From: Octopus vulgaris
Lineage: Eukaryota
Assembly: GCA_951406725.2 (NCBI GenBank)
Contig: OX597823.1
Span: 64,604,001 to 64,668,000 of the forward strand
Direction: 5' to 3'
DNA: 64,000 nt
Numbering within the stretch: the stretch's first letter is position 1; each line of letters starts with the position of its first letter. The notes beneath the pieces were generated by a model. It was not told the DNA's origin and searched no databases. It saw only the letters and a program-made list of their open reading frames with translations. A program made the translations under genes and the position numbers. This document shows, one piece after another, positions 15,550-39,018 of the stretch.

Positions 15550-15611
15550 ATATATATCTTTATATATATAAAACTGAGAATGTGTGTCTGTCTGTCTGTC
15601 TGTCTGTTTGT

Positions 15612-15905
15612 TTCCCTAAAACTTGAGAACTACACAACCAATTCCATTCAAATTTTACACATACCTTACTTAGGGTGCGGGGAGTGTCATCGTCAAAAAC
15701 AATTTTTAACTTTTTGCCTAGGGCGAGCCCACAGCAATATCATATCTTCTCCACTACGATTCCCTAAAACTTGAGAACTACACAACCAATTCCATTCAAA
15801 TTTTACACATGCCTTACTTAGGGTCCATGTAGTTTCATGGGCAAAAAAAAATGTTCAACTTCTTGCCTAGAGCGAACCCATAGCAATATCATATCTTCTC
15901 CACTA
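15612..15905 (+). repeat. about 148-bp tandem duplication inside the Helitron 5' arm
   Basis: ttccctaaaacttgagaactacacaacc...atcttctccacta occurs twice. Confidence 0.9.
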
Positions 15906-16190
15906 TTTCAGTGTTATGTATTAAAAGTGAAACAAAAACATTTCTCTATTTTATGTCAGATACTTTCACTTTAAAATAATAATAATAACAATTCAATTAT
16001 ATGTAGTAAGTAATAATTAAAATCAAACTAAAGTGTAATATAATCGTAACATAACAAAAGTAAAAATAGCAATTGGTATAAAATTGCATCAATGACTTGA
16101 ACTTGAATAAGTGGTTTCACATGAATGAGAATAAATTAAAAATAAAATTAGCATGCAGAAATGGAATAGTCCAGATGAATAATAAAAAAT

Positions 16191-16244
16191 TATATTAAAG
16201 AAAAGACTATTGTCTATAAAGTATACAATGTAGAGAAAAAAGGT
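16191..16244 (+). pseudogene. decayed Tx1-type ORF1 fragment, left part
   Basis: Reads YIKEKTIVYKVYNVEKKG, comparable to YDKRTIVYRVCANERKR in the unit-1 ORF1. Confidence 0.6.
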
Positions 16245-16260
16245 CGTTTTTTTCGGCTCC

Positions 16261-17996
16261 GTGTTTTTTTTTCGGCTCCTGAAAATTCGGTAAAAAAGAA
16301 CAAAAAAGGTTGTTGTTGTTGTGGAAATTCTGAACGGCGTTGACGCGGTTTCGCGTTTCGCTCGTTCAGCGCGTTACACTTTTTCTGTTTTGGCGGCCGT
16401 TTTCGGTCTGTCAGACAGAAGGAAATGGACTATGAGTCTTTAACAGACTTGTCCACGACGGATGAGGAACTGGAACAGGCAATTGCAGTGAAGCTGATGG
16501 AGGAAAAGGCTGGAGTTTTTGAGTCTTTATCAGACTTGCCTATGTCTGAGAAGGAGCTAGAAATGGCAGCAAGGAAATTGGAAGACAAGCTGAGTTATAC
16601 CTATGCCGGTGTAACCAAGAAGGCGGAAGAGAAAGGGGTCGACATGGTCAAGTTGCCAAGTTACCAGAAATACATGAAAAAGGAAAGCGGTGAGGTGGAA
16701 CTATCACCGACACCCAGGAGAAAAGAATGGTATGATAAGAGGACCATTGTTTACAGGGTGTGCGCAAACGAAAGGAAGAGGGTAGAAGTTGTATCCATGG
16801 AATGGATAGAGGAAGCCCTGCGAAGAACTGAGGAGGAAATAAATTTTCTGACTCGAGGATCCAAGTACGGGACCGTAGTTGTGCATTTTAAAAGTGAATC
16901 GGCAGCGAGGAAGATGGCAGCGAAGGCGGTGAAGTCGGAAAAGGTAACACTGTTACCTACGTATTTAAACAGGAGGATTACACGAATAAGGGTGGAGGGA
17001 GTGCCACCAAACGTGGAGGCAGAATGGATTGTGGCGGCTGTGATCAGCGGCCACGAGGACGAAGTGGATATTCTCCATGCCTCGGTTAAGTCCGAGGGCT
17101 GGAGAGGCGTAACAGTGGAGCTGAACGTACAGGCAGAGACCGAGGTACTGGTGGACCTGACGGAAAGCATCAGACTGGGAGAAGTGATCATGAGAGTGTG
17201 GGTGGAGGGCAGGGCTCCACGTTGTTACAAGTGTGGCCTGAGGGGTCACATAAGAGCCTTCTGCCCTCCCCCAGGGAAAGAAATGGATCCTGAACCAGAG
17301 AGAGAGAAGCAGAAACCAGAGGAGAAGGAAACAGAGGAAGAGAATACACAGAAATGGAAGGAAGCTGGAAGTAAGAGGAAGAGAAGAATATGTGGAAAAA
17401 AAGAAAATAATATGGAACTCCAATCTACCCCAAAACCTCCCACACCCTCTGAGTCCCACCCTATCCATGCAGACATTGAACCCACCCGCTCCCCCCCAAC
17501 AAGAAAACAAAAGAAAAAAAAGAATACACACACACAAGAGATTGAAATCGAACCCAGGCCGTACATTTGTACTATGACTGAACAGAGGGAAGTTAAAAGT
17601 CTAATGGAAGAGTATAAACGGTATGATGTTGGAGAGACTAGGTATGCTGTGATTGAAAAAAAGAACATAGGTGAGTTTATGGGGAGGTGTGAAAGGGAGA
17701 ATTGGGAGGTGAAAGATATAAGAATGAGCGATGAATTCGTGGAAAATATGAATGAGTATTTCGGAGTAAGAATGGATATGGAATTTATTCGTATTGGCAA
17801 AGAACATTCAAGTGACTATGAAAAACAAAGGACAGGTAAGTGATGCTGACGGACGGGGCCGTTGGTATCGCTTTCATTTTATCATTTTTTTCGTTTAACA
17901 CTTCATGTTCATATAGTTTAATTATAATGTTCTATGTCCCCATGTTTTGTTATGTCCGCCATTCTTCGTAGCCCCTTAGTGGGTAATAAAGAAATA
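16261..17996 (+). mobile_element. ORF1-only (HAL1-like) Tx1-clade element, unit 1
   Basis: CpG-rich 5' UTR, single ORF1, U-rich 3' UTR, tail gccccttagtgggtaataaagaaata. Flanked by cg(t)7-8cggctcc duplication (16245-16260 / 17997-18013). Confidence 0.85.
16425..17843 (+). CDS. Tx1/L1-type ORF1 gag-like protein (RRM-like region + CCHC knuckle), intact, 472 aa
   Basis: CYKCGLRGHIRAFC (CX2CX4HX4C) preceded by VEGR; colinear with the ORF1 upstream of the RT in unit 4. Confidence 0.85.
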   Translation: MDYESLTDLSTTDEELEQAIAVKLMEEKAGVFESLSDLPMSEKELEMAARKLEDKLSYTYAGVTKKAEEKGVDMVKLPSYQKYMKKESGEVELSPTPRRKEWYDKRTIVYRVCANERKRVEVVSMEWIEEALRRTEEEINFLTRGSKYGTVVVHFKSESAARKMAAKAVKSEKVTLLPTYLNRRITRIRVEGVPPNVEAEWIVAAVISGHEDEVDILHASVKSEGWRGVTVELNVQAETEVLVDLTESIRLGEVIMRVWVEGRAPRCYKCGLRGHIRAFCPPPGKEMDPEPEREKQKPEEKETEEENTQKWKEAGSKRKRRICGKKENNMELQSTPKPPTPSESHPIHADIEPTRSPPTRKQKKKKNTHTQEIEIEPRPYICTMTEQREVKSLMEEYKRYDVGETRYAVIEKKNIGEFMGRCERENWEVKDIRMSDEFVENMNEYFGVRMDMEFIRIGKEHSSDYEKQRTGK

Positions 17997-19727
17997 CGTT
18001 TTTTTTCGGCTCCTGAAATTCGGTAAAAAAGAACAAAAAGCGTTGTTGTTGTTGTGGAAATTCTGAACGGCGTTGACGCGGTTTCGCGTTTCGCTCGTTC
18101 AGCGCGTTACACTTTTTCTGTTTTGGCGGCCGTTTTCGGTCTGTCAGACAGAAGGAGATGGACTATGAGTCTCTAACAGACTTGTCCACGACAGATGAGG
18201 AACTGGAACAGGCAATTGCAATGAAGCTGATGGAAGAAAAGGCTGGAATTTTCGAGTCTTTATCAGACCTGCCTACGTCTGAGAAAGAGCTAGAAATGGC
18301 AGCAAGGAATTTGGAAGAGAAGCTGGGTTATACCTATGCCGGTGTAACCAAGAAGGCGGAAGAGAAAGGGGTAGACATGGCCAAGTTGCCAAGTTACCAG
18401 AAATACATGAAAAAGGAAAGCGGTGAGGTGGAACTATCACCGACACCCAGGAGAAAAGAATGGTATGATAAGAGGACCATTATTTACAGGGTGTTCGCAA
18501 ACGAAAGGAAGAGGGTAGAAGTTGTAACCATGGAATGGATAGAGGAAGCCCTGCGAAGAACTGAGGAGGAAATAAATTTTCTGACTCGAGGATCCAAGTA
18601 CGGTACCGTAGTTGTGCATTTCAAAACTGAGTCTGCAGCGAGGAAGATGGCGGCGAAGGCGGTGAAGTCAGAAAAGGTAACCCTATTACCTACGTATTTA
18701 AACAGGAGGATTACACGAATAAGGGTGGAGGGAGTGCCACCAAACGTGGAGGCAGAATGGATTGTGGCGGCTGTGATCAGCGGCCACGAGGACGAAGTGG
18801 ATATTCTCCATGCCTCGGTTAAGTCCGAGGGCTGGAGAGGCGTAACAGTGGAGCTGAACGTACAGGCAGAGACCGAGGTACTGGTGGACCTGACGGAAAG
18901 CATCAGACTGGGAGACGTGATCATGAGAGTGTGGGTGGAGGGCAGGGCTCCACGTTGTTACAAGTGTGGCCTGAGGGGTCACATAAGAGCCTTCTGCCCT
19001 CCCCCAGGGAAAGAAATGGATTCCGAACCAGAGAGAGAGAAGCAGAAACCAGAGGAGAAGGAAACAGAGGAAGAGAATACACAGAAATGGAAGGAAGCTG
19101 GAAGTAAGAGGAAGAGAAGAATATGTGGAAAAAAAGAAAATAATATGGAACTCCAATCTACCCCAAAACCACCCACACCCTCTGAGTCCCACCCTATCCA
19201 TGCAGACATTGAACCCACCCGCTCCCCCCAACAAGAAAACAAAAGAAAAAAAAGAATACACACACACAAGAGATTGAAATCGAACCCAGGCCGTACATTT
19301 GTACTATGACTGAACAGAAAGAAGTTAAAAGTCTAATGGAAGAGTATAAATGGTATGATGTTGGAGAGACTAGGTATGCTGTGATTGAAAAGAAGAACAT
19401 AGGTGAGTTTATGGGGAGGTGTGAAAGGGAGAATTGGGAGGTGAAAGATATAAGAATGAGCGATGAATTCGTGGAAAATATGGATGAGTATTTCGGAGTA
19501 AGAATGGATATGGAATTTATTCGTATTGACAAAGAACATTCAAGTGACTATGAAAAACAAAGGACAGGTAAGTGATGCTGACGGACGGGGCCGTTGGTAT
19601 CGCTTTCATTTTATCATTTTTTTCGTTTAACAATTCATTTTCATAAAGTTTAATTATAATGTTCTATGTCCCCATGTTTTGTTATGTCCGCCATTCTTCG
19701 TAGCCCCTTAGTGGGTAATAAAGAAAT
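17997..19727 (+). mobile_element. ORF1-only Tx1-clade element, unit 2 (close paralogue of unit 1)
   Basis: Colinear with unit 1 over the full length, with scattered substitutions and the same tail. Confidence 0.85.
18158..19575 (+). pseudogene. ORF1 with one frameshift in a C-run near 19225
   Basis: ORFs 18158..19309 and 19306..19575 together match unit-1 ORF1. The run is C6 here versus C7 in unit 1, so it could be a sequencing error. Confidence 0.85.
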
Positions 19728-19747
19728 CACATGGAGGAAATCAATTT

Positions 19748-21510
19748 GCGTGTTGTTATCTGTGACTAGACGTTGAAATTTTGTTGTGTAAAGTGATTAA
19801 TATCGCGCGAGGCGTTTGCCTCCACGTTTGGAAACCTTCCGAAGAAGGTGAATTGACCCTCTAGTCATGGCGACTTACGCGGGGGTCACGGGAAAGAAAA
19901 ATAATGATTCGGCAATAATCGTGAAGGATGTTTTCTTTGAGAAGAGTAAACTCAAAGAATATGAAAAACTATTCAAAAGGGAGGGTGATAGCGTGAAGCT
20001 AATCCCCCCCGCGAAAGCAAAAGAGGACAAAGAAAACAAGACTGTAACGTATAGAACCCAGGAAAAAGTACAAAGAAACTGGCAAGAGTGGAGATAGCAG
20101 AGATCGAAAAATGTCTGGGAGACATAATGGATAAATCGACCTACGTGAGTAGAGGAAAAAATTTGGTACGGTGGAGGTGAGATGTGCAACGGAAGAAATT
20201 GCAGCCTCACTGGCTACCACTGTTCTAAGAGCGGAAACATTTATAATGTGGCCCTCATACAAGGGAAGAAGAGGGGTCCGGGTTAAAATCCCGAATATAC
20301 CCCCAGAAGTAAAAACAGAATGGCTGGCAACAGCTATTCTAGGAGCAGCAGAAGAGGAAGTGGAGGTGGAATCCTTTAAGGAGTCCAACGCAGTAAACTG
20401 GAGAGGATATGGGGTAGAACTGTGTTTGATGGCCACAAAAGAGGACATTGAAAGGTTCCCCTATAGAATAGAAATTGAAGACGAGAAAACCCTCAGTGTA
20501 ATTGTAGAGGGAAGAAAGCCAAACTGCTACTTGTGCGGGACAAGGGGGCACATTAAAAAAGAGTGCCCGTTATACGAATTCGTAGCGGAGTATGAGAAGG
20601 AAATTGAAGAAAAGAAGAATACGGTAAATGAAAAAGAAAACATAGAAAAGGAGACAAAACAACAAGAGAAAGGAAATAATAAGTCAACGAAGGAAAAAGA
20701 AATAAAAGAAAAGAAAGAAATAGAACCAAAACAGAGTCAGGAAAAGAAAAAGGAAAAAGAAACAACAGGAAAAAAACAAGAGAGAGATCAGAACCAAACG
20801 AAAAGAAAAGACGGCACACAAAAAGAAAAAGAAAAGGAACATAAAACACGAGAGAAAGAGAGAACAGACAAAGAACCAAAAAGACAAGAGAAGGAAGGAG
20901 AAAGAAAAGAAGGCAAAAAGAGAGAAAGAGAGAAACAAAGAGAGGAGAACAAGGAAGAAATAAGCCCGAAAAGAAAAACGAGAGAAAACGTAGGACGGAA
21001 ACAAGATTACTACAAGTTAATAACCTTCCATTTCAGCCCTGAAATGAAGGAATTGACATGTAGTACGGAGGGACATGTGTGGGTCAACAGGATGACTGAT
21101 CAGTGGCAGGAGACTGCTCTGATCCCCGAAGAAAGAGTCGCTGAGTTCCTCAGAGCAGCTGGAGAGAGTGTAATTTTTTACACGGGTGTTCGAATGAAAG
21201 AGCGGCTGCCTGAGGGCTCAGTGATTGACTTTAGAGACTTGAAAGGTATTATGGAATACGTGTGAGATTGTGAGAGGAGAGAGAAGAAAGAAGAGAAAAA
21301 AGAAAAAAAAAAAATTGTGAACTATATGTGACGAAAATGTAACCTCTCGATTCCGGGGATCGAGTGGGCATTTGCATCTCATTGTAAATATTCTTTCATT
21401 TGTCATTTTTATTTTTATTTTTTCCTTTTCTTGTCATTTCGCTTTCTTATTTTAAGTTCCCCGATTGTATTGTCCCCTCTATGTTCGCCCCTTGTGGGTA
21501 GTAATAAAAT
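19748..21510 (+). mobile_element. divergent ORF1-only Tx1-clade element, unit 3
   Basis: Flanked by the 20-bp duplication cacatggaggaaatcaattt (19728-19747 / 21511-21530); tail gccccttgtgggtagtaataaaat. Confidence 0.85.
19867..21265 (+). pseudogene. ORF1 (frameshifted near 20070-20160) with CCHC knuckle and K/E-rich linker
   Basis: MATYAGV start (compare YTYAGV in unit 1), GTVEV, IPPEVKTEWL, VEGRKPNCYLCGTRGHIKKEC. Confidence 0.8.
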
Positions 21511-21739
21511 CACATGGAGGAAATCAATTTATTGCGTTATTAGTAAGTTGATATATATTTTTGCTCTCATACTACTTATCTCTGTTATTATATACTGTTG
21601 GTCTACCTTTTTTGTCCATTGTTGTCTAACGGACGAAGTCAACCTTCGCGCGAAGACTTCGCGTTGGTGTTCCCCCTCAGTGGGGGAAAACTACAATCAA
21701 TTTAGATTACCAAAGGCTTGTTAAAGCCATTTGTTCAAG

Positions 21740-23122
21740 ATGGAGTCCCCCATCACTTATTCGCCCGTGACGAGCGAGGATGAATACCCGGCGTTGTCGC
21801 CAAGTAAAAAAGAGGCGTTGTCGCCAAGAAAAAAAGAGGCGCTGTCGCCGAAGAAAAAAGAGGCGGCGTCGCCCAAGAAAATGGAAAAACCAGTACCAGC
21901 ATCAACTCCAGCAAAAAAATTCGCTGAAGTGGCTGGGAAGAAAATTAAAAAAAAATTAACGTGGACAACCTGGGAAAACATGCAGACTGTGTGTAAAAAA
22001 GAGGGCACAGAAGTAACCTGTGGCTTCAAACGCCCAAAAATACAGGAGGATATTTCGAATAGGAGAATAATCTATAAGACATTCAGTATAACAAACAGAG
22101 CAATCCAAAAAATAGAGGAGAAAAAGATTGAAAACTGCTTAAAGCCAATAATGGATAAAATTACGTATATCAATCGAGGAAAAAGAAATACGGCACAGTG
22201 GAGGTGAGATTCACGTCAGAGGAGGTAGCGAAGAAGCTATCCATGGAACCCATCAAAGCGGAGGATATTGTTCTCCTACCCCTGTATAAAGGCAAGAGAA
22301 CTTCCAAAATCACTATGAACAACATCCCGCCAGAGCGGATGCCGAAGTCCTAGTGGCAGCAGTTATGGTAGGCCTGGAGGAAAAAATAAACATCCTCCAG
22401 GCCACCGTGGAGAAGAAGAATTCTGGAAAGGGCAAAAAGATAATAATAGCCATACAAGCAGAAGTACAAACCCTGGAAGAGATCCCAGAGACTCTAAGGA
22501 TAAGTGAAGAAGATGAAAGAGTCACAGTCTTCGTAGAGGGCAGAAAGCCGAGGTGCTTCGGCTGCGGTAAGAAGGGGCATGTAAGGGCGGAATGCCAGCC
22601 CCAACCCAAACCGCAGGAAGCACCTAAGCCAAAAGGAAAAAGAAGACAATGTGTCACCAGAAGCAGCGTCAGACGGCCCAGAAGGGAAGACTGAAGGTGT
22701 GGAGGTGATGGTAACAGCAGAACCAGCGGCGGAGGAAAAAAAGAGCGAGGAAAAGATAAATGAGGAGGGGTGGGCAAAAATTATCGGAAAAAAAAAAAGA
22801 AAAACGGAAACCACCCCTCCCAGAGTAATTTTAAAAAAGAAAAAAGAGTCAATGAACTCATATATGGCCGTAAAGCATCAAATAGCAGACTCGGAAACGT
22901 GTTGGCAGCCATGGCCAATGTGAGAGAGTAGAGAAAAAAAATGACTTTGTAATTTACAAAATAGACCGGAAGGATTACGGGCGGATAAAGTCAGAATTCT
23001 TCCATGACGTAGGCCCACTTAGGTTGGATGTAACATCTCCACATATATTCGAGGGCCTACGTCAGACTCCCCCACGAGGCCCAGAAAAAGAGAAGGAAGA
23101 AGAAGAAAAACCGAACCACTGA
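21740..23122 (+). pseudogene. LINE ORF1 with several frameshifts, N-terminal SPKK repeats and CCHC knuckle
   Basis: Pieces 21731..22207, 22353..22694 and 22651..22923; VEGRKPRCFGCGKKGHVRAEC. End coordinate approximate. Confidence 0.8.
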
Positions 23123-23136
23123 TATAAAGGTAAGTA

Positions 23137-26100
23137 ATGGATTACATTTATGTTGGTTGTTTAAATGTGCGCGGCCTGGGAGCAGGCTGGAAGCAAGGTC
23201 GCTTCCTGCATGATATCAGGTCGCGTAATTTAGATGTTATTGTTGCTACAGAAACCCGGCTAGAGGGGCCAAGAGGTCTACTCCCGCTGTTTGACGGCTA
23301 CGAGAGTTTTTTCTCTCCTGGCAGTCCTACAGGCGGGAGTGGGGTGTTGGTCCTATTAAAAAGAAACCGGGTTTCTGAGAAAAAGTTAATTTTTGCAGAT
23401 CCAGAAGGTAGGCTGGTCGTCATGGATTTGACGTTCAGTAATGGTAAAGTTATCAGACTGGTTGCAATTTACGCACCCAACCATACAGGGCAAAGTGATT
23501 ATTTTCGTGAACTAGAAAACTTTCTTGGTACTTCGCATTCATTAGTGGTGCTAGGAGACTTTAACACAATTTGCAAAGCGGATGTGGATTGTGTTGGCTC
23601 GTGTCCAGATAGAAAAGGCAACAGTGGCTTCATGGAACTGCTAAGCCGCTTTGAGCTAGCAGATCCTTATAGGCTGGAATTTCCGAACGCTCCATTGTGG
23701 ACATGGTCAAACAGCGACGGATCTTCCAGGTCGTATTCTAGATAGAATACTAATTAGAAAAGTAGACAGTAAAATAGCTAAGTGTCCACAGTTTTACCCG
23801 ATCAGCTACAGTGATCATAAAATGGTCACTTGTAAGCTTGACATAGATAAGGTTAAAAATAGAGGATCCGGTTACTGGAAACTTAATACGTCCCTTTTGG
23901 CGATTAAGGAGTACAAAGACCGGATTAGGAATATAATTCAGAGGGCACTATCTGGTACCATCATTAATAACAAATGGTGGTACGCCCTCAAACGAGCCAT
24001 CAAGTTTGAGTCTATTAGATATAGCATAGGAGTAGTGGCTAGAGAGGCTAGAAGGGAAACTACTCTAGTTAAGGAATTAGAGGAAGCCATGAAAACTGGC
24101 TCTGCGGCTCAGGTGGCGGCCAAGAGACTGGTGTTAAACCAGCACCTCGAGGCCAAACACATGGGCTGCATTGTCAGGGCTAGAATCCGTCATATGGGAT
24201 GTGAAGGAATCAACGCCGTGAGATGGGCCCGAGTGGTGGAAGCTCAGCATGGTAACGATGCCACGATTCGATCTTTGACGAACCAACAAGGTGAGTTGAT
24301 AAACGAACCCGAGGAGATGTGTGAGGCCTTTCAGGAGCACTTCGCTCAGCTTTTCGGTGAGTGCGGCGGACTGGATAGGAGGAGGGCCTTTACGGACCTA
24401 CTCGACGGTCTGCCGCGCTTATCGGGGCGAGATGCGGAGGGCTGTGAAGGGCCAATCACGCCTGAGGAGGTGGTTGAGGCAATGGCGGACTGCGGCGCGG
24501 GCAAGGCGCCGGGTTTGGATGGTCTACCCTATGAGTTATATAAGAGTATGCCAGACTTGTTCGGGCACCTACTGGCGGAGGTCTACGCGAACTGGCAGCA
24601 GAACGGGCTTATACCCAGATCTGTGCGCCGGGGAGTAGTGACTCTCGTCAGAAAGGACCCGAGCAAGGGGGAGTGCATTGATAATTTCAGGCCCATCACT
24701 CTGCTAAACACAGAGTTGAAGATTTTGGCCAAAGTGTTATCGAAAAGATTGGCGTGTGTCGCGGATGGTCTGATCGGAGGGGCACAGACATGTGCCGTTC
24801 CGGGCAGATCCATTCAGGATAATCTCCATCTAATGCGGTACACTATAGAGGGGTTTAATAGTGATTCTGGCAAGGGTGGGGCACTGGTCCATTTAGACCA
24901 ATCTAAAGCTTTTGATAGGGTCGACCATCGTTACCTGGTATCTGCCCTGGCACAGTTCGGGCTGAGCCTTGGATTCCTCAGGTGGATTATCGAAATTTAT
25001 GATAACATCGACTCGGTAGTTCGGGTGAACGGCTTCTTGTCGAAGCCGTTCAAAATCAAACGCTCGGTTCGTCAAGGGTGTCCGCTCTCCCCGCTTTTGT
25101 ACGTGATGGCTCTTGAGCCATTACTGCGAAAACTGAGCGGCATCCCGAGACAGCCAGGTAATGGAAAATCAGTGTCAGCGTACGCGGATGACATCACCAT
25201 CATCGTAACCGAAATGGACCACCTATGTAAAGTAGGCAAGGCCATAGAGGTGTACGAGACGGTGACAGGAGCAAAAGTTAATCGCGAAAAGTCAGTCGGC
25301 TTGCAACTCGGCACCTGGAGAGGCAAGTCGATGCCTCCTGACAGCGTCGTGGGACGTTGGACGGAGGGTCCGATTAAACTGCTAGGGGTCTGGTTCGGTC
25401 CAGACCTCCAAATAGAGAAGAATTGGGGCGAGGTAACGAGCAAGGTGGCTGCAGTAGCCAAGACCTGGTCTTGGCGGTGGCTATCCCTGAAAGGGAGGGC
25501 GGAGGTGGCCAATGTGTTTATCGCATCGGTTATCACCTACCGCCTTTCCGTCGTTCCTTGCCCTGATTCGTGGTTGATCAAGTTGGAAAGACAGCTCTTC
25601 TACTTCTTGTGGAAGGGCGGGAAACCACTGTGAAACGCTCTACTTGCTGTCAACAACCGTTAAAGGGTGGGCTAGGGATGCCTTGGCTGATGATGCGCAG
25701 ACATGCGCTGAGGTTAAGACATCTGTGGCTCTACCTGGATGGTGAACGGGTGTGGTCTTCGCTAGCAAAACTGATGTTTCCCAAGTTCACTAGTTTCGGT
25801 GGATGGGAAACCTGGCTGAGTCGTAGATCGAAACTTGGTACTTGGTACACGGAGTGTCGCAAGGGCTCTCCTGCTATTCCGTCGCTCGGGCAACGCCTGC
25901 GGTGGGGGTTCCACCACTTTCTTCTATAGAGGGTTGGTAGAGGCGGAATGTGAAGATACCTTGGGGGAAACCCTAGGTCTCGACGATAATCAGCTGGCCA
26001 GTCTGTTCCGACGTACGTTCGAGCCAAGGACACTGGACAACTTCCAGAAGTCTCTGGCATGGCAATGCTACAGAGGAGCTCTACCTGTTCGGGATAAACT

Positions 26101-26532
26101 CGCAAGGCACGGTGGCCAAGACAGTCCGATATGTCCAAGATGCGGGCGGGATAGGGAAACCGTCCCGCACGCGATTGTTCATTGTCCGGACGTGTCTGAG
26201 GTGTGGGTTTATGCCGAACACCTGTTGTCAGGTACACGAAGAGTACAGCTGTCGACTGAGTCGATTACAAAAATTGACCCACCGGATTTCCTCGTGAATG
26301 AAGGTAAGTTTCGTTTTCTCGTTGTAGTAGCAATGCGAAAGAGGTGATATGGAAGACGAGAATGAAAGGTTTACAGTCAGGCAAGTTCATCTCCGGCCCT
26401 GGTTTGATGAATTATTTCATCTTTCACCTGAAAAGGAAGATAGGGCTGGAGAGAATATGCCTGACTAGGAGAGCGTATGAAGAACGATGGAAGGATGTAG
26501 CACGGAAGTTGCGAATGAAAGTTACAACATAA
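23137..26532 (+). pseudogene. LINE ORF2: AP endonuclease + reverse transcriptase + C-terminal CCHC finger (about 4 frameshifts)
   Basis: APE motifs LNVRG, ATET, IYAPN, LGDFN, SDH; GYWKLN; RT motifs KAPGLDG, FRPITLLN, LDQSKAFDRV, SVRQGCPLSP, YADD; CPRCG..ETVPHAIVHC. Confidence 0.95.
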
Positions 26533-26780
26533 ATGTAATACCAAGTGCAACCAAAAGTATCAGTGGGGAGGCGGGGCTCGTGGGGTCCGAGCTAAACCCG
26601 CACCCACTCCACCCGTAATGTCTTCCGGTCTGTCCTATCATTCGATTTCTGTCCATTTATTGTTATTCATGAAAATTTTTAAACCCGATTTATTGTAAAA
26701 ACCCATTCGTTTGTCTGACCCCATCATCAGAATGTATTGTCCCATCTGTGTTCGCCCCTTGTGGGTAATAATAAAACAAC

Positions 26781-27062
26781 ATGGAGGAAAGCACCTTCGA
26801 AAAGTGTCTTGGTGCGACAATGAAAGATATCTAATCAGAGGCGGTAAATTCACTACAATAGAAGTCAACGGAGCGTGCAAGGGAGTACTCGACTCAAACC
26901 TGCAAAGTGGAAATATTTTATTTTTACCTTTATATCTGGGACGTAGGACGTCCCGGAAAAAAATTTAAAATGCTCCCCACCCAGAAGTAGAGGTAGGCTG
27001 GATTGTAGCCACACTTCTATACAAGAGGGAGGACAAGATACAATTGATCGAAATTACAAGAG
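26781..27062 (+). pseudogene. decayed Tx1-type ORF1 fragment, right part
   Basis: MEESTFEKCL.../YLIRGGKFTTIEV...ILFLPLYLGRRTSRKKI*NAPHPEVEVGWIVATLL aligns by eye with FLTRGSKYGTVVV...TLLPTYLNRRITRIRVEGVPPNVEAEWIVAAVI. Confidence 0.8.
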
Positions 27063-27267
27063 ACGGGCTAACAATTCCAAGTCTGTTATATATTTTGAGT
27101 ATTGTTATCACTAGCGATATCAAGATATAACTTTGTATTTTGTATTTTATGTGTAGATGTATATATATAGATGTACATGTACATGTACACATATATATAC
27201 ACATATATATACACATATATACATGCACTAGCACTATGACCCGGCAACGACGGGTCTTTAATGCTAG

Positions 27268-27304
<37 letters not shown>

Positions 27305-27688: not shown

Positions 27689-28155
27689 ATGTATATATAT
27701 ATATGTATCTATATATCTGGTCTTCCTTAAAACAAATTTGCCCAGACTTGTGTCTCAGAGGGGAACTTCCTATGGTCATTCATGAATGAAGAGAGTCTTT
27801 ATTCTTTAATATATATATATATGCAATGATTAAATCATATTATGCTCTTTATGGTATTTTGTTTCGTGCATGATCCACCAGTTCTCATAAAAATTGTCTT
27901 GCATGAAACTGGTCTGAAGCTCAAAAAAAATGTTGGGGTTCATTGCTGTACAATGTAACTGAAAAATAATAATTACAGATCTTAAAAACTTATTTGAGAA
28001 TTCCTTCTATAGAAAATCCGTAGAGATGACCTTAACATGATTTAAATGCACTGCTAACACAGTAGTACATTGTATTGACTTCTGAAAATGTTTAATATAT
28101 TTCGTAGTAAGTTATGGTTGCATAACAAAATACCATATGCCTACAAGTCATATAT

Positions 28156-28453
28156 ATGTTATGGATTGGGTCTGCCCCTCTGGCAAATCCCCAACATGTC
28201 ATGTAATGTTATGGATTGAGTCTGCCCCTCTGGCAAATGCCTGACATGTCATGTAATGTTATGGATTGAGTCTGCCCCTCTGGCGAATGCCTGACATTCA
28301 TGTAATGTTATGGATTGAGTCTGCCCCTCTGGTGAATCTCTGACATGTCATGTAATGTTACGAGTTGGCCCTGTCCCTCTGGGGAATCTGACATGTCATG
28401 TAATGTTATGGATTGGCCCTGCCTCTCTGGCGAATCTGACATGTCATGTAATG
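28156..28453 (+). repeat. 48-50-bp minisatellite, 6 units
   Basis: atgttatggattgagtctgcccctctggcaaatgcctgacatgtcatgta, contiguous with no spacers. Confidence 0.9.
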
Positions 28454-29055
28454 TGTGTACACCTATACACATATACAAGCACATACATAGATACACACAC
28501 TCACACACACACATATATATACATATACGTACTCATATACAAATGAACTAATACATACAAAGAATAAAATGAAAATACATACCTATTTAAATATACATAC
28601 ACTTATACAGAAATGGATACATATATATGCATATATACACACATATCAGAATATATGCATATATATATATGCACATATATACATATAGATATTCATACAC
28701 ATGCACAAATGCATACATACACATATATATATATATATATATCTCAATAAAGCAAATGTGTTTGCAAGCTCGAATGTAAGCATATAGCTAATCCATAACG
28801 GCAAAAAAGTAAACACTTGTATTAGATTAAATCTGCCAGAGAGATTATGAAAGCAATTTTACTGACATGTGTACAGTAATAATTAATAATTAATAATAAT
28901 AAAAATAAAAATAAAATAAATCTAAGGTAGAGGTAATCAGGAGCAAAAAGAAGTTTTCAGGTGCAGGATTAGAGAACCAAAGTAGTCATTAGATGGCAAC
29001 AACTTCAATAATTTGTAAAAGATAGTTAAGCTGTAAAATATGAGTGCAATGGACT

Positions 29056-33370: not shown

Positions 33371-34553
33371 TCACTCAACTACAGTACTAGTTGAATAATA
33401 CTCTTAAGGCCGCAAAAAACTCACATACTGCATCTTTCGGGCTTGTTGCTAATTTAATTCATAACCAAATTGAAAACTGTTAACATTTTTGTAGAGGACT
33501 GGTCCCTAGCTACATTTTGGCATTAAAAAATTGAGATTTGATCCTGTAGAAAAAGTTTATATCAAAATTTATAGCAACATTATAGGAGAGTAAGTAATGC
33601 CACCAATCGAGTTTAGATCTAAATAACTTTTTTTTTTATAAAAGCAAAATATATTCATCTTAGCTTGAATGATAGAAGAAAGCATAAAGAATTTCACAGT
33701 TTTGTTCCCATGCAACAAAAATTTGTATCAAAAAGTTGTGAGGTAAAATATCACCAGAAAAATATAAGGCAAAAACTGGATTTAAGTATAATTAACTTTG
33801 TTATTTTAAAAACACACTATATTTTAATTAAATGATAGATTTAATTAAATGATAGAGCTCAATTCAAAGAATTTCATGGTATCAATCTCATGCAATGAAG
33901 TTTAAAAACAAAAAAGTTATGAGCGTTTGTTTCTGAAATTTGAGGGTGATAATATAGTGCTATACTTTTTCATGAATACAGTTCTATAAGGGTGCTTTTA
34001 ATATATGTTACCGGTGTCATTGAGGTTAGGAAAAATTATCAATGACACCGTGAATTGAAACATTTGACACATTATTTATTAGCATAATAGCATAGCCTGG
34101 AAAAAACATGGATTACATGGGAAAATGCAAGCAAGAGAAATAACATTCTTAAGATTATAAACTTGGAAAATTACAGGACATCTTATTACACTTAGAAAAG
34201 TTCAGGACATCTTATTACATCTGGTAAAGTACAGAACAAAAATATTTTTACTTAGAATATTGCAGCTAAGGATAAAATTTGAATATTAAAAATTATTTGA
34301 TTTTAATTTACAAGGTAACTTTATAATTAACAAAATACCCTCACAAGAGTACTTAATAAATGAGAGCCAGAAGTATCAATATAGCTAAAGTTTTATGCAA
34401 TGTAGAATAGTATATATGGTAGGCAGATTCATTATGTAAAAAATAGGCATTGGGTCAAGACTAAAAATGTGAAGACTTGGCAATAACTTAGGCAATAACT
34501 CAAGCAAATTTTACTGTGAATTTGTTGTTATAGGTAGATTTTACTGCAATATA

Positions 34554-36191
34554 CACTGGCGAAAATAAATTTAAGACTGAGATGATAAAAGTTCTATTTC
34601 TCACAAAATACTTTGTTACTAACACCATAAAAATTATTTTTATCTGTTACACCTCATGCAGAATTTATTTCTCTTTCGAATGATGCAGATAATAACTATT
34701 TTTATACTACTTGTAGAATTCTAATGCTAAATTAATATAAACGTTTCAAATTTACTGGCAAAATTAGTTTAAGACCGTATCATTATAATTTTATTTAAAG
34801 CTTAAGATTGTAGCAAAAATGAGCAACAAGAACGAAATAGATATTAGTACTTTGTGCTGTAGCCCTTATTTTTAATAATGGCTGAACAATGCCTCGGTAT
34901 TGAATTCACTAAGTGATTACAAAATTCTATGGGAATGTTTTGCCATATCTCATTGATATAGTCGAATAATTGTTTTAGATTAGATGGTTTTTTAGCATGG
35001 ACTTTTTTGGAAACATAAATCCACAAGTTCTCAATCAGATTCAGGTCTGGGCTCTGGGGAGGCCATTCGATTATGCCAATTTTATGGTGATCAAAAAATC
35101 CCATAACCTTTTTGGCTTTGTGCACAGGAATATTGTCCTGGTGATAAATAGCCCCTTGAGGCATTTGGTGAGTCAAATATGGCACAACATTATCCATTAA
35201 TAGATTCATATAACCTACACTATTTAGCTTTCCATCAACTTTAACTAGAGGGCCAACACCAAAGCTACTAAATGCTGCTCACACCATCACACCCCTAACA
35301 CCCACTTGCGCCATCGTTTTCAAGCATTTCAGATGGAATTCCTCGGTTGGGCGACGTCTGATGTATGTTTTACCATCTGATCCAAATATACAGAAGCGTG
35401 ACTCGTCATTCCAAAGGACCCTGCAACAATCTTCGGCAGTCCATTGAGCATGGCTTTTTATGAAATTAAGGTGTTTGAGTCGACTTTTTTGGATATTATT
35501 GACGTTTTCCTAACAATTCGTCATTGCAGTCTAAATTCTCTCAAATGGTTGTGGACAGTTTGTGGTGTAAAAATAAAACCATTCTCATTGGACAATTGTT
35601 TACAAATGTCAACGGCTGTCAGCATTCGGTTGCCTTCAGAAAGTCAGTGGATTCAATGGTCCAACTGCACCGTCGCTTTTCTTGGGGGTCCAGTCCTTTA
35701 CCAATCTTTATATTGACCAGTCTCCAAGTATAACTTCCATGCTTGCACACAAGCCATTTTACTTCACTTTAGTTACTTGCTGATGTTCAAAAAGGAAACT
35801 TTTTGCTGGTGGAGTAATATGATTTTTACTCTCGTGACTGTACTGAGGCTACGTTGTTTTCCTATTATTAATCAATTGTATAATAACGTTAAATTATAAC
35901 ACTATATAGTGCAGTTAGGCTAGTTGTGTGACCACCCATTTTGGCAAAAAAATTTGCATATATATTACATAGTCTTAAACTAATTTTGCCAGTAAATTTG
36001 AAACATTTCTATTAATTTAGCATTAGAATTCTTCAAGTAGTATAAAAATAGTTATTGTCTGCATCATTCGAAAGAGAAATAAATTCTGCATAAAGTGTAA
36101 AAGATAAAAATAATTTGTATGGTGTTAGTAACAAAATATTTTGTAAGAAATAGAACTTTTATCATCGGTCTTAAATTTATTTTCGCCAGTG
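34554..36191 (-). mobile_element. Tc1-family DNA transposon with IR/DR ends
   Basis: TA|cactggcgaaaataaatttaagac ... gtcttaaatttattttcgccagtg|TA; about 220-bp TIRs, each with an inner direct repeat actggcaaaattagtttaagac. Confidence 0.95.
34844..35757 (-). pseudogene. Tc1 DD34E transposase, disrupted
   Basis: WNDESRF, QDNIPVH and SPDLNLIENLW, with 34 residues between the second D and E. 5' boundary approximate. Confidence 0.9.
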
Positions 36192-36640
36192 TATAACTAA
36201 TTTTTGTATTATTCTATTTATTGTACTAACTAATTATGTTCTACTATAATTTTTTATAACCTATTTTCAAATTTCTAATTATTAATTAATAATTAAAAAA
36301 ATGAATGTTTTTAAAGTGCAAAAATTATTTTGATTGAGTTATCTTTCATTTTTAATAGAAGTAACAAGTAATAACAAATAGAAATAATAACTTGTAATAA
36401 AAATTTTCGTTTTAATAAAAGCTAATATTTTCTAAGCCTAAATATTTTATTTGAAATTTTATCCTTAGCTGCAATATTTTAAGTAAATATTTTCTTGTTC
36501 TGTACTTTACAAGATGTAATAAGTTGTCCTGAACTTTTCCAAGTGTAATAACTTGTCCTGTAATTTTCCAGATTTATAATCTTAAGAATATTATTTCTCT
36601 TGCTCGCATTTTTCCATGTAATATGTATATTCTTTTATTA

Positions 36641-37870: not shown

Positions 37871-39000
37871 TATGTTTGACTTTTGCTTTATATTTGTACA
37901 AGTTGGCTCCAAGTCTCACCCAGAGACCTCAAGAGACAACAGGGTTGGAAGTTCATGTTGTTGTTATGCCTAGTGTGCCATATATTTGGGGGGTGGGGAT
38001 GTTGTACTAATGAATGTCTAAAAATAAAAAAAAAAAAAAAAAAGGTTTTTTTTTTTTTGTTTTTTTTTTTAAACCGAAAATTATGTTTGTTTTAAACCTT
38101 GAGATTACATAGAGAGTATTTTGCGTAGGATATGAGCAGTTCCCATGAGCACTATCTTTTGAACTTCTGCCATTTTTGGGTTTCCTGGTATCTGAGTTAG
38201 GTAGCTATCAGCCCCTTTTGCTATCATTCCCAGGGCACCTATGACAACAGGTATTGTTTTAGTCTTCAGCTTCCACATTTTGCTGATTTCTATTTCAAGA
38301 TCTTTATATTTGCTCAGTTTTTGGTAGGTCTTGACAGATACGTTTATATCGATTGGGACAGTCATATCAATGAGGAGGCATGTTCTTTGTTTGAAGTTTT
38401 TCAATATGATGTCTGGCCTATTTGCATCTATCTTCCTGTCAGTTTGAATGGTGAAGTTCCAGAGGAGTGAGATGTGGTCATTTTCAAGCACTGGGGGTGG
38501 TTTGTGTTCCCACCAGTTTTTTTCATGGGGCAAATCCAGGTTTTTACAGATTACCCAGTGAATATATTGTGCAGCTCTATCGTGCCTGTTGAGATACTCT
38601 GTAGGCGCTAGAAGACTGCACTTGGAGACCACATGGTCAATGGTTTCATTTTGTTGCTTGCATACACGACACGTTGGACTGCTTCTGATCTTTAATATGT
38701 TGGCCTGGTAGTTTCTTGTTGGTAGGCATTGATCTTGAGCTGCTATGATAAACCCCTCTGTTTCAGATTTTAAGCCAGAGGCCATTAGCCATTGATGGGT
38801 CAGGGCTTTGTCGATATCTGCATTATTCGCTCTCTTTGGGTATTTGCCATAGAGAGGTTTTTCTTGCCATTTATTATTCAGAATATCTAAGGCCGCAGTT
38901 TTGGCACGGGTTTTCATGCGCCTAGCTTTTTCTGTGCTTGTTTCATGCGCCTAGCTTTTTCTGAGCTTGTTTTATGCGCCTAGCTTTTTCTGTGCTTGTT
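37869..39000 (-). mobile_element. 5'-truncated R4/Dong-like RLE non-LTR retrotransposon in (TAA)n
   Basis: ORF C-terminus and 3' UTR, flanked on both sides by (TAA)n. Confidence 0.85.
38105..38917 (-). CDS. C-terminal CCHC finger + restriction-like endonuclease domain (partial ORF)
   Basis: CRVC..ETIDHVVSKC, RHD, RPDII..LLID, K..KY.DL, IPVVIGALG: the R2-group RLE signature. Confidence 0.9.
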   Translation of the reverse strand: MKTRAKTAALDILNNKWQEKPLYGKYPKRANNADIDKALTHQWLMASGLKSETEGFIIAAQDQCLPTRNYQANILKIRSSPTCRVCKQQNETIDHVVSKCSLLAPTEYLNRHDRAAQYIHWVICKNLDLPHEKNWWEHKPPPVLENDHISLLWNFTIQTDRKIDANRPDIILKNFKQRTCLLIDMTVPIDINVSVKTYQKLSKYKDLEIEISKMWKLKTKTIPVVIGALGMIAKGADSYLTQIPGNPKMAEVQKIVLMGTAHILRKILSM

Positions 39001-39018
39001 TTATTATTATTATTATTA

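Follow-up and report, generated by a model that had tools for sequence, protein, structure and literature searches.

The 64,000-nucleotide stretch of the Octopus vulgaris genome analysed here (GenBank assembly GCA_951406725.2, contig OX597823.1, positions 64,604,001 to 64,668,000 of the forward strand; hereafter the window) carries a 10.5-kb stack of four head-to-tail units, one of them a long interspersed nuclear element (LINE), whose two flanks are one interrupted piece of ORF1. This ORF1 fossil lies inside a 1.2-kb non-autonomous Helitron with canonical ends, and it is a shared, dead part of that high-copy Helitron, found in contigs of several organisms. The explanation that we favour, with a probability of about 0.5, is that the fossil was left by an older insertion of a separate ORF1 lineage, D, into the Helitron, was amplified with it, and now acts as a landing pad for today's elements.

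The stack and its empty site

The four units, A1, A2, B and C, occupy positions 16243-26776 (Table 1). Unit C is a member of the L1 clade in the broad sense, with an apurinic/apyrimidinic endonuclease (APE), a reverse transcriptase (RT) and a C-terminal zinc motif, detected in its ORF2 as PF03372, PF00078 and PF13966; among solved structures its ORF2 lies nearest to L1 ORF2p (E 5e-49, compared with 2e-24 for R2). Both of its ORFs are frameshifted, and its 3' tail is common to A and B. The Tx1 label is compatible with this architecture, and among the 120 listed of 738 protein matches to unit C none is named Tx1. In the ORF1 tree described below, the ORF1 of unit C stands at near-zero distance from a named O. 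sinensis protein, and an O. vulgaris protein adjoins it. The predicted model of the A1 ORF1 reached a predicted local distance difference test (pLDDT) score of 95.4, and Foldseek placed tandem RNA recognition motif (RRM) proteins at the top of its matches (E ~3e-5, whole-chain TM score 0.3-0.4). The ORF1 family is accordingly predicted to have an RRM fold, with two RRM-type domains and a CCHC knuckle in A1, the member that was modelled.

Table 1. Features of the window discussed in the text, with positions counted from its first letter.
Feature	Positions	Strand	Remarks
Helitron left arm	15557..16242	+	5' TC after A, (GTCT)n, two 148-bp internal repeats, then left ORF1 piece
ORF1 fossil, left part	16181..16242	+	lineage D; first strand of RRM1
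Unit A1	16243..17995	+	ORF1-only; ORF 16425-17843; predicted tandem RRM and CCHC knuckle
Unit A2	17996..19727	+	ORF1-only; 97.5% identity to A1; one frameshift
Target copy CACATGGAGGAAA, A2/B junction	19728..19740	+	
Unit B	19741..21510	+	ORF1-only; frameshifts
Target copy CACATGGAGGAAA, B/C junction	21511..21523	+	
Unit C	21524..26776	+	L1/Tx1-type; ORF1 from 21740; ORF2 23137-26347 (APE endonuclease, RT, zf-RVT)
ORF1 fossil, right part	26777..27072	+	target (12/13 here), remaining RRM1, first half of RRM2
Right border of ORF1 homology	27072..27079	+	C-type tail joined here in some contigs (X15, X3); candidate second site or deletion form
Helitron right end	27073..27267	+	(TA/CA)n, 19-nt hairpin 27238-27256, CTAG end then T
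Minisatellite	28143-28454		50-bp unit, 6.3 copies
Nested long inverted repeats	34100-36632		arms 88-94% identical, around DDE_3 transposase fragment
5'-truncated LINE end	37872-39017	-	281-aa ORF, zf-RVT, RPD-type nuclease-like motif; (AAT)n both sides
Dispersed repeat, ~230 bp (family D14)	7987, 8630, 10115, 27473, 41190, 42942, 49751		probably a SINE

The empty site is present in public contigs: in three of the four contig runs (X15, X3 and X20) the left flank continues directly into the right flank. The letters before position 26779 equal window positions 16224-16242 at 19 of 19 sites in X3 (15 contigs) and X20 (one contig) and nearly match them in X15 (14 contigs), while no empty-site row for X17 is among the 24 listed of 261 loose ends. 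Empty copies read through the left flank, then through ten bases that the window has lost, and then into the target. The flanks therefore form a single sequence to which the 13-mer is native, and the ten upstream bases have been lost at the A1 junction. No target duplication is present at the 5' end of unit A1. The 13-mer CACATGGAGGAAA recurs at the A2/B and B/C junctions and, with one mismatch, after unit C; its sharing by three junctions of one locus is what serial duplication would produce. In empty copies the target spells the codons H-M-E-E-S, in-frame coding sequence of lineage D, and two forms coexist there (window positions 26779-26782), H-M and H-L, in 14 and 24 contigs of X15 and in 15 and 23 of X3, respectively; all three junctions in the window carry the H-M form. 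The ORF1s of A, B and C themselves match the target at only 1, 6 and 9 of its 13 positions.

At these junctions, units B and C, whose ORF1s are about 32% alike, both begin with TCAATTT (19741-19760 and 21524-21545), which may be an initiator-like start. The duplication followed by TCAATTT reads M-E-E-I-N, and the A1 ORF1 at 16832 matches it at 14 of 15 bases, a score reached by 10 of 3000 codon shuffles (20 bases at the B/C junction; a post hoc comparison with three ORFs tried).

Homology and decay of the ORF1 fossil

The fossil comprises about 380 nt around the stack and corresponds to RRM1 plus half of RRM2. It is interrupted by the stack near the start of the first helix. A previous reading of the DNA made from the sequence alone had described the flanks as a decayed ORF1 homologue colinear with the RRM-like region of the stack's ORF1s; the peptides that it quoted are all found where it placed them, and its limits of 16191-27062 are to be widened, the fossil starting at about 16181 and ending at about 27072. 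In tblastn comparisons the right flank matched the A1 ORF1 (E 2.5e-8, 32% identity over 78 columns) and the B ORF1 (E 1e-4). When the flank pieces were joined, with X at the breaks, none of 2000 shuffles reached the observed score against A1, B or C. Taken by itself, the 17-residue left piece is weak: 10, 464 and 16 of 2000 shuffles attain its scores for A1, B and C, respectively, although 13 of 15 residues agree with the library protein P0077.

Relatives were collected by a full HMMER scan of 1.84 billion representative proteins, which yielded 1178 matches (library clusters) at E<=0.001, of which 150 were kept; 91 of these 150 match the right flank at E<=0.01. Word-index protein searches returned nothing for either the right flank (87 candidates) or the A1 ORF1 (1240 candidates). 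A hidden Markov model (HMM) of 101 library proteins, mildly circular in that its proteins came from a profile that included the flank pieces, assigned 16182-16241 to its positions 53-72 (iE 0.15), the stretch from 26775 to position 75 onward (iE 0.09) and 26825-27064 to positions 94-176 (iE 4e-17). The three pieces follow one another in model order, and the flanks are therefore colinear with the ORF1 family. The sequence-only reading is borne out on this point by a significant profile match and by contigs in which both flanks form one sequence.

The right part of the fossil contains frameshifts near 26827 and 26900, a gap of 11 nt behind 26862 and a stop at 26966-26968. Those 11 nt are present in other copies, and their loss puts the stretch between TTIE and the LPLY block out of frame in the window copy. 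Conversely, the Y of the peptide YIKEK is peculiar to the window copy, essentially all contig depth having A at 16193 and hence an in-frame stop. The stop at 16191-16193, an A-run lengthened by two bases ahead of the target and the shift near 26827 are family-wide; a base is missing at 26900 in most of the contig depth, and 26958-26983 is variable. Stops and frameshifts in most copies indicate that the fossil is not maintained as a protein.

No CCHC knuckle occurs in the fossil, the HMM finds nothing beyond 27064, and no tail-like match was found beyond 26793, in keeping with the absence of a zinc knuckle and 3' tail reported earlier. Lacking the knuckle and carrying several stops and shifts, the fossil is a fragment and not a working ORF1 member; with both ends missing, it is also, as had been suggested, no ordinary 5'-truncated retrocopy. 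Pfam gave no families for two pieces of the fossil. Of 33 Rfam matches at E<=5, most on (TA)n, none attained the gathering score; the target does not belong to any known RNA gene.

A high-copy Helitron as host

Helitrons insert between A and T without a duplication. Here, A at 15556 and T at 27268 flank the element, both bases lying within (TA)n. The termini are TC at 15557-15558 and CTAG at 27264-27267, and the hairpin (z -3.5) stops 11 nt before the end, which agrees with the hallmarks described in the available part of PMC4067079, namely 5' TC, 3' CTRR and a hairpin of 16-20 nt about 11 nt from the end.

The fossil and the Helitron body have equal contig depth. Relative to the A1 median, fossil depth is 21x in X15 and 126x in X17, and relative to the C 3' untranslated region it is 42x (X15), 59x (X17) and 43x (X3); such summed contig depth is a rough guide only and not a copy number. 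Dividing it by the depth of low-depth contigs (about 10-30 in X15) suggests fossil copies in the order of ten thousand. Run X15 may come from the sample from which the window was sequenced, whereas runs X3, X17 and X20 have other organism and study codes. The fossil is contiguous at Helitron-level depth in organisms A, B and E and has low depth in organism G, whose run X20 yielded only four records, so that the fossil is rare there. Of the raw-read runs, X21 shows nothing on the Helitron and X22 little. The Helitron-borne ORF1 piece proposed as a landing site by the sequence-only reading is thus supported by its presence at the depth of the Helitron body in contigs of several organisms, while the word "captured", which it used, may have to give way to an older insertion.

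A single low-depth contig from organism G (record 19 of X20) has the frame-keeping forms at 26862 and 26900 and five other differing letters over 143, all at places where the family departs from the window. It may represent an old subfamily, a horizontal transfer or foreign DNA.

A fourth ORF1 lineage

Identity of the fossil to A1, B and C amounts to 35-38% (unit B being re-framed for this comparison), compared with 50-62%, over 45-84 residues, to six library proteins, P0077, P0142, P0036, P0045, P0104 and P0038, all of them short unnamed fragments. In a tree of 32 chosen rows the fossil and these six proteins form a fourth ORF1 lineage, which we call D, with support of 100/97, and the lineage is also recovered in a quick tree of 103 rows (SH-aLRT 99), for which 9 of 112 trimmed rows were left out; the repeat-driven matches P0002, P0031 and P0086 had been removed before trimming. 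Grouping of the fossil with C or A1 was rejected by the approximately unbiased (AU) test (p-AU 0.014 and 0.017). Judging from these comparisons, the fossil derives from neither A nor C, and a derivation from B is improbable.

Reading by eye agrees with this placement. The 11 bases absent from the window copy encode E-A-R-F-E, as in P0104 and nearly so in P0045 and P0077. With its preceding bases the target translates as R-F-E-H-M-E-E-S-T, where P0142 has K-F-E-Q-L-E-E-S-T and P0036 has L-E-Q-F-E-E-S-T, and this in-frame reading alongside P0142 identifies the target as lineage D coding sequence; both readings use letters that were masked in the tree alignments.

In four contigs of X17 and four reads of X22, D-type ORF1 goes on in frame upstream of 16181-16184, with S-R-I-T-P-P where P0077 has S-V-I-T-P-P (by eye), which fixes the left border of the fossil. 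All of the depth in X17 and X22 has the stop base at 16193, so these sequences are dead relatives or a longer Helitron form and not a live parent. No direct parent was found in the protein-library scan. Between 16184 and 16221 the X22 reads further carry a D-type ORF1 piece repeated in tandem, together with about 50 additional ORF1 bases.

Origin of the fossil and its present use

The odds given to the readings in this section are judgements rather than computations. In the explanation that we favour, a D element would have entered an ancestral Helitron at or near 27072, and the insert would have been trimmed to about 380 nt by internal priming or by deletion. Its stops and frameshifts are common to most copies, so it is not kept up as a protein. 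Rolling-circle copying spread the fossil widely, as its depth shows, to what are probably some ten thousand copies. By analogy with Tx1 biology, a C-type endonuclease would now nick the fossil at the boundary of the E and H codons. Insertions of B and C would carry the 13-nt duplication and so renew the site, A-type insertions would remove a short stretch upstream, and the enzyme of C-type elements would also serve A and B.

Today's elements likely cut the fossil because the Helitron made the target abundant and harmless, and not for its ORF1 past. The fossil has no DNA similarity to the ORF1s of A, B or C (best E 0.11), so homology cannot steer insertion today, and the available part of PMC4494074 describes the targeting of Tx1 elements as set mainly by the endonuclease. 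The fossil makes up 32% of the empty Helitron, and a site within it therefore needs no special cause. Pairing between element tails and the downstream target was not above that of shuffles (z 1.33, -0.04 and -0.69).

An older insertion into an already targeted Helitron is the simplest account of why the host carries an ORF1 piece at all. It is supported by C-type tails joined to the Helitron at about 27072, with the right fossil part skipped, at depths of 683 and 101 in X15 and 724 in X3.

Several points weigh against this account. The short side of the border joints measures only 21-22 letters, such joints are listed for two of the four runs, and they could be a deletion form that arose via a short ACAA match and was then copied with the Helitron. 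No duplication brackets the fossil, the best score being reached by 10,571 of 20,000 random 21-mers, and the loose ends listed, 20 of 325 and 24 of 261, include no fossil-free form of the Helitron. The AU test retains a grouping of the fossil with B (p-AU 0.146), and the six D proteins were chosen for their closeness to the fossil before the tree was built. Finally, a target that reads in frame within ORF1 is what a conflict between elements would predict, whereas here it has about a one-in-three chance.

Plain DNA capture, in which the Helitron took up a piece of a dead D copy as filler or by end-bypass and the inserting lineage adapted to it later, is a conceivable alternative that we regard as rather unlikely. 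It shares the present-day mechanism set out above and differs in origin alone, the common ancestry of fossil and inserters being coincidental. Helitrons are reported to take up internal fragments (available part of PMC6544945), ORF1 relatives are plentiful, as the 1178 library clusters show, the fossil borders have no duplication, and the upstream D-type extensions with the stop base in X17 and X22 fit a dead donor. A longer ancestral Helitron would fit those extended copies equally well, however, and capture leaves the tails at the right border unexplained and calls for two independent events to meet in one family.

A conflict between elements is a more doubtful proposition. In this scenario the endonuclease first evolved to cut D ORF1, the Helitron later acquired a piece with the site and amplified it, and the attackers outlived D; in its boldest and likewise doubtful form, a LINE lineage would have helped to drive a sister lineage extinct and would now live on the Helitron-amplified fossil of its victim. 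The 13-nt target and the ten bases before it are in-frame D code from which the stack's own ORF1s diverge (1, 6 and 9 of 13 positions). The D proteins are short and unnamed, with named long ones among the A-, B- and C-like proteins; two crocodilian Tx1 families favour long terminal repeat (LTR) retrotransposons (available part of PMC4494074). The post hoc match of the B/C junction to the A1 ORF1 (14 of 15 bases, 10 of 3000 shuffles) would also suit such a conflict, but it may reflect the duplication followed by a possible initiator-like start. Three of the six D proteins, a small set biased toward open frames, cross the target codon unbroken, the other three start downstream, and none ends there. 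Moreover, bases encoding the D residues Q-L or Q-F would differ from the 13-mer at two positions or more, and the H-L allele, absent from the stack, fits D better than H-M does; together with the H-M/H-L split, these residues indicate that the exact target may have arisen within the Helitron. The earlier suggestion that the lineage targets ORF1 of a related family thus gains the fact of an in-frame target from a separate lineage, but no direct support.

That the fossil is merely the oldest decayed member of this stack, or its flanks unrelated insertions, is hardly credible: it shares the orientation and the broad ORF1 type of the stack, but it has no tail, belongs to another lineage and is contiguous at Helitron-level depth in organisms A, B and E (low in G), and the empty-site contigs refute both versions.

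Relation to known systems

The case belongs with the L1/Tx1 elements that target other transposons, the new twist being the ancestry of the target. In the available part of Kojima 2015 (PMC4494074), Tx1 families are described that target other transposons, with tandem inserts around the duplication: Tx1-Mar and SINEU in Mariner-N4_AMi, with two unlike hot spots within one Mariner, a Xenopus Tx1 in Tx1D, Tx1-9_AMi in Harbinger, and Tx1-8_Crp and Tx1-4_AMi in LTR retrotransposons. These systems resemble the octopus case in that L1/Tx1-type elements, together with non-autonomous partners, insert into an abundant transposon at fixed sites, frequently as tandem copies around a target duplication; a single host can offer two unlike hot spots. 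The octopus case differs in having a Helitron as host, ORF1-only units as partners and, as target, a fossil of the inserters' own ORF1 family; neither such a target nor Helitrons are described in that part of the paper.

Hel1 of insects is likewise a Helitron family that carries and amplifies an internal foreign fragment (available part of PMC6544945), and the Helentron endonuclease, of probable CR1 origin, is described as LINE coding sequence that entered by insertion or DNA transduction (available part of PMC4067079). Unlike these, the octopus fragment is dead, was not recruited as a protein and serves as a DNA target of related LINEs. The predicted A1 ORF1, with two RRM-type domains and a CCHC knuckle, resembles the Type I ORF1p of diverse L1/Tx1 elements (RRM and CCHC knuckle; PMC5203782, in part), of which the fossil retains RRM1 and half of RRM2 only. 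For O. vulgaris, 13 recently active L1-Tx1 and eight Helitron families have been reported, and nesting is not mentioned in the available part of that report (PMC13282606). Full-text searches of the literature showed no report of LINEs that target a Helitron-borne ORF1 fossil; whether the case is new could also depend on the target lists that supplement PMC4494074 and on the PMC13282606 repeat library.

New targets of sequence-specific LINEs can usually not be traced to their origin, as such a target lacks a history. The octopus target, by contrast, is coding sequence whose relatives are known; it occurs as two alleles in a host that can be dated, which makes it testable whether the fossil or the specificity came first. 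If the older-insertion account is true, the system would be a loop of three parties: a rolling-circle transposon spread a LINE relic, which became a niche for later LINEs and for their ORF1-only hitch-hikers. If the bold form of the conflict is true, it would record direct strife between sister LINE lineages, preserved by a DNA transposon. In either case, annotators should be aware that a very common octopus repeat contains a LINE protein fossil.

Other features of the window

A metagenome locus (L001) found with a 21-nt flank pattern was rejected as a chance match, its contig being bacterial-looking and without other similarity to the window. Further along the window (Table 1), the truncated LINE end on the minus strand is one that we take to resemble Dong/R4, the nested inverted repeats around the transposase fragment form a Tc1/mariner-type element or a foldback, and the minisatellite and the dispersed repeat family D14, probably a short interspersed nuclear element (SINE), complete the inventory.

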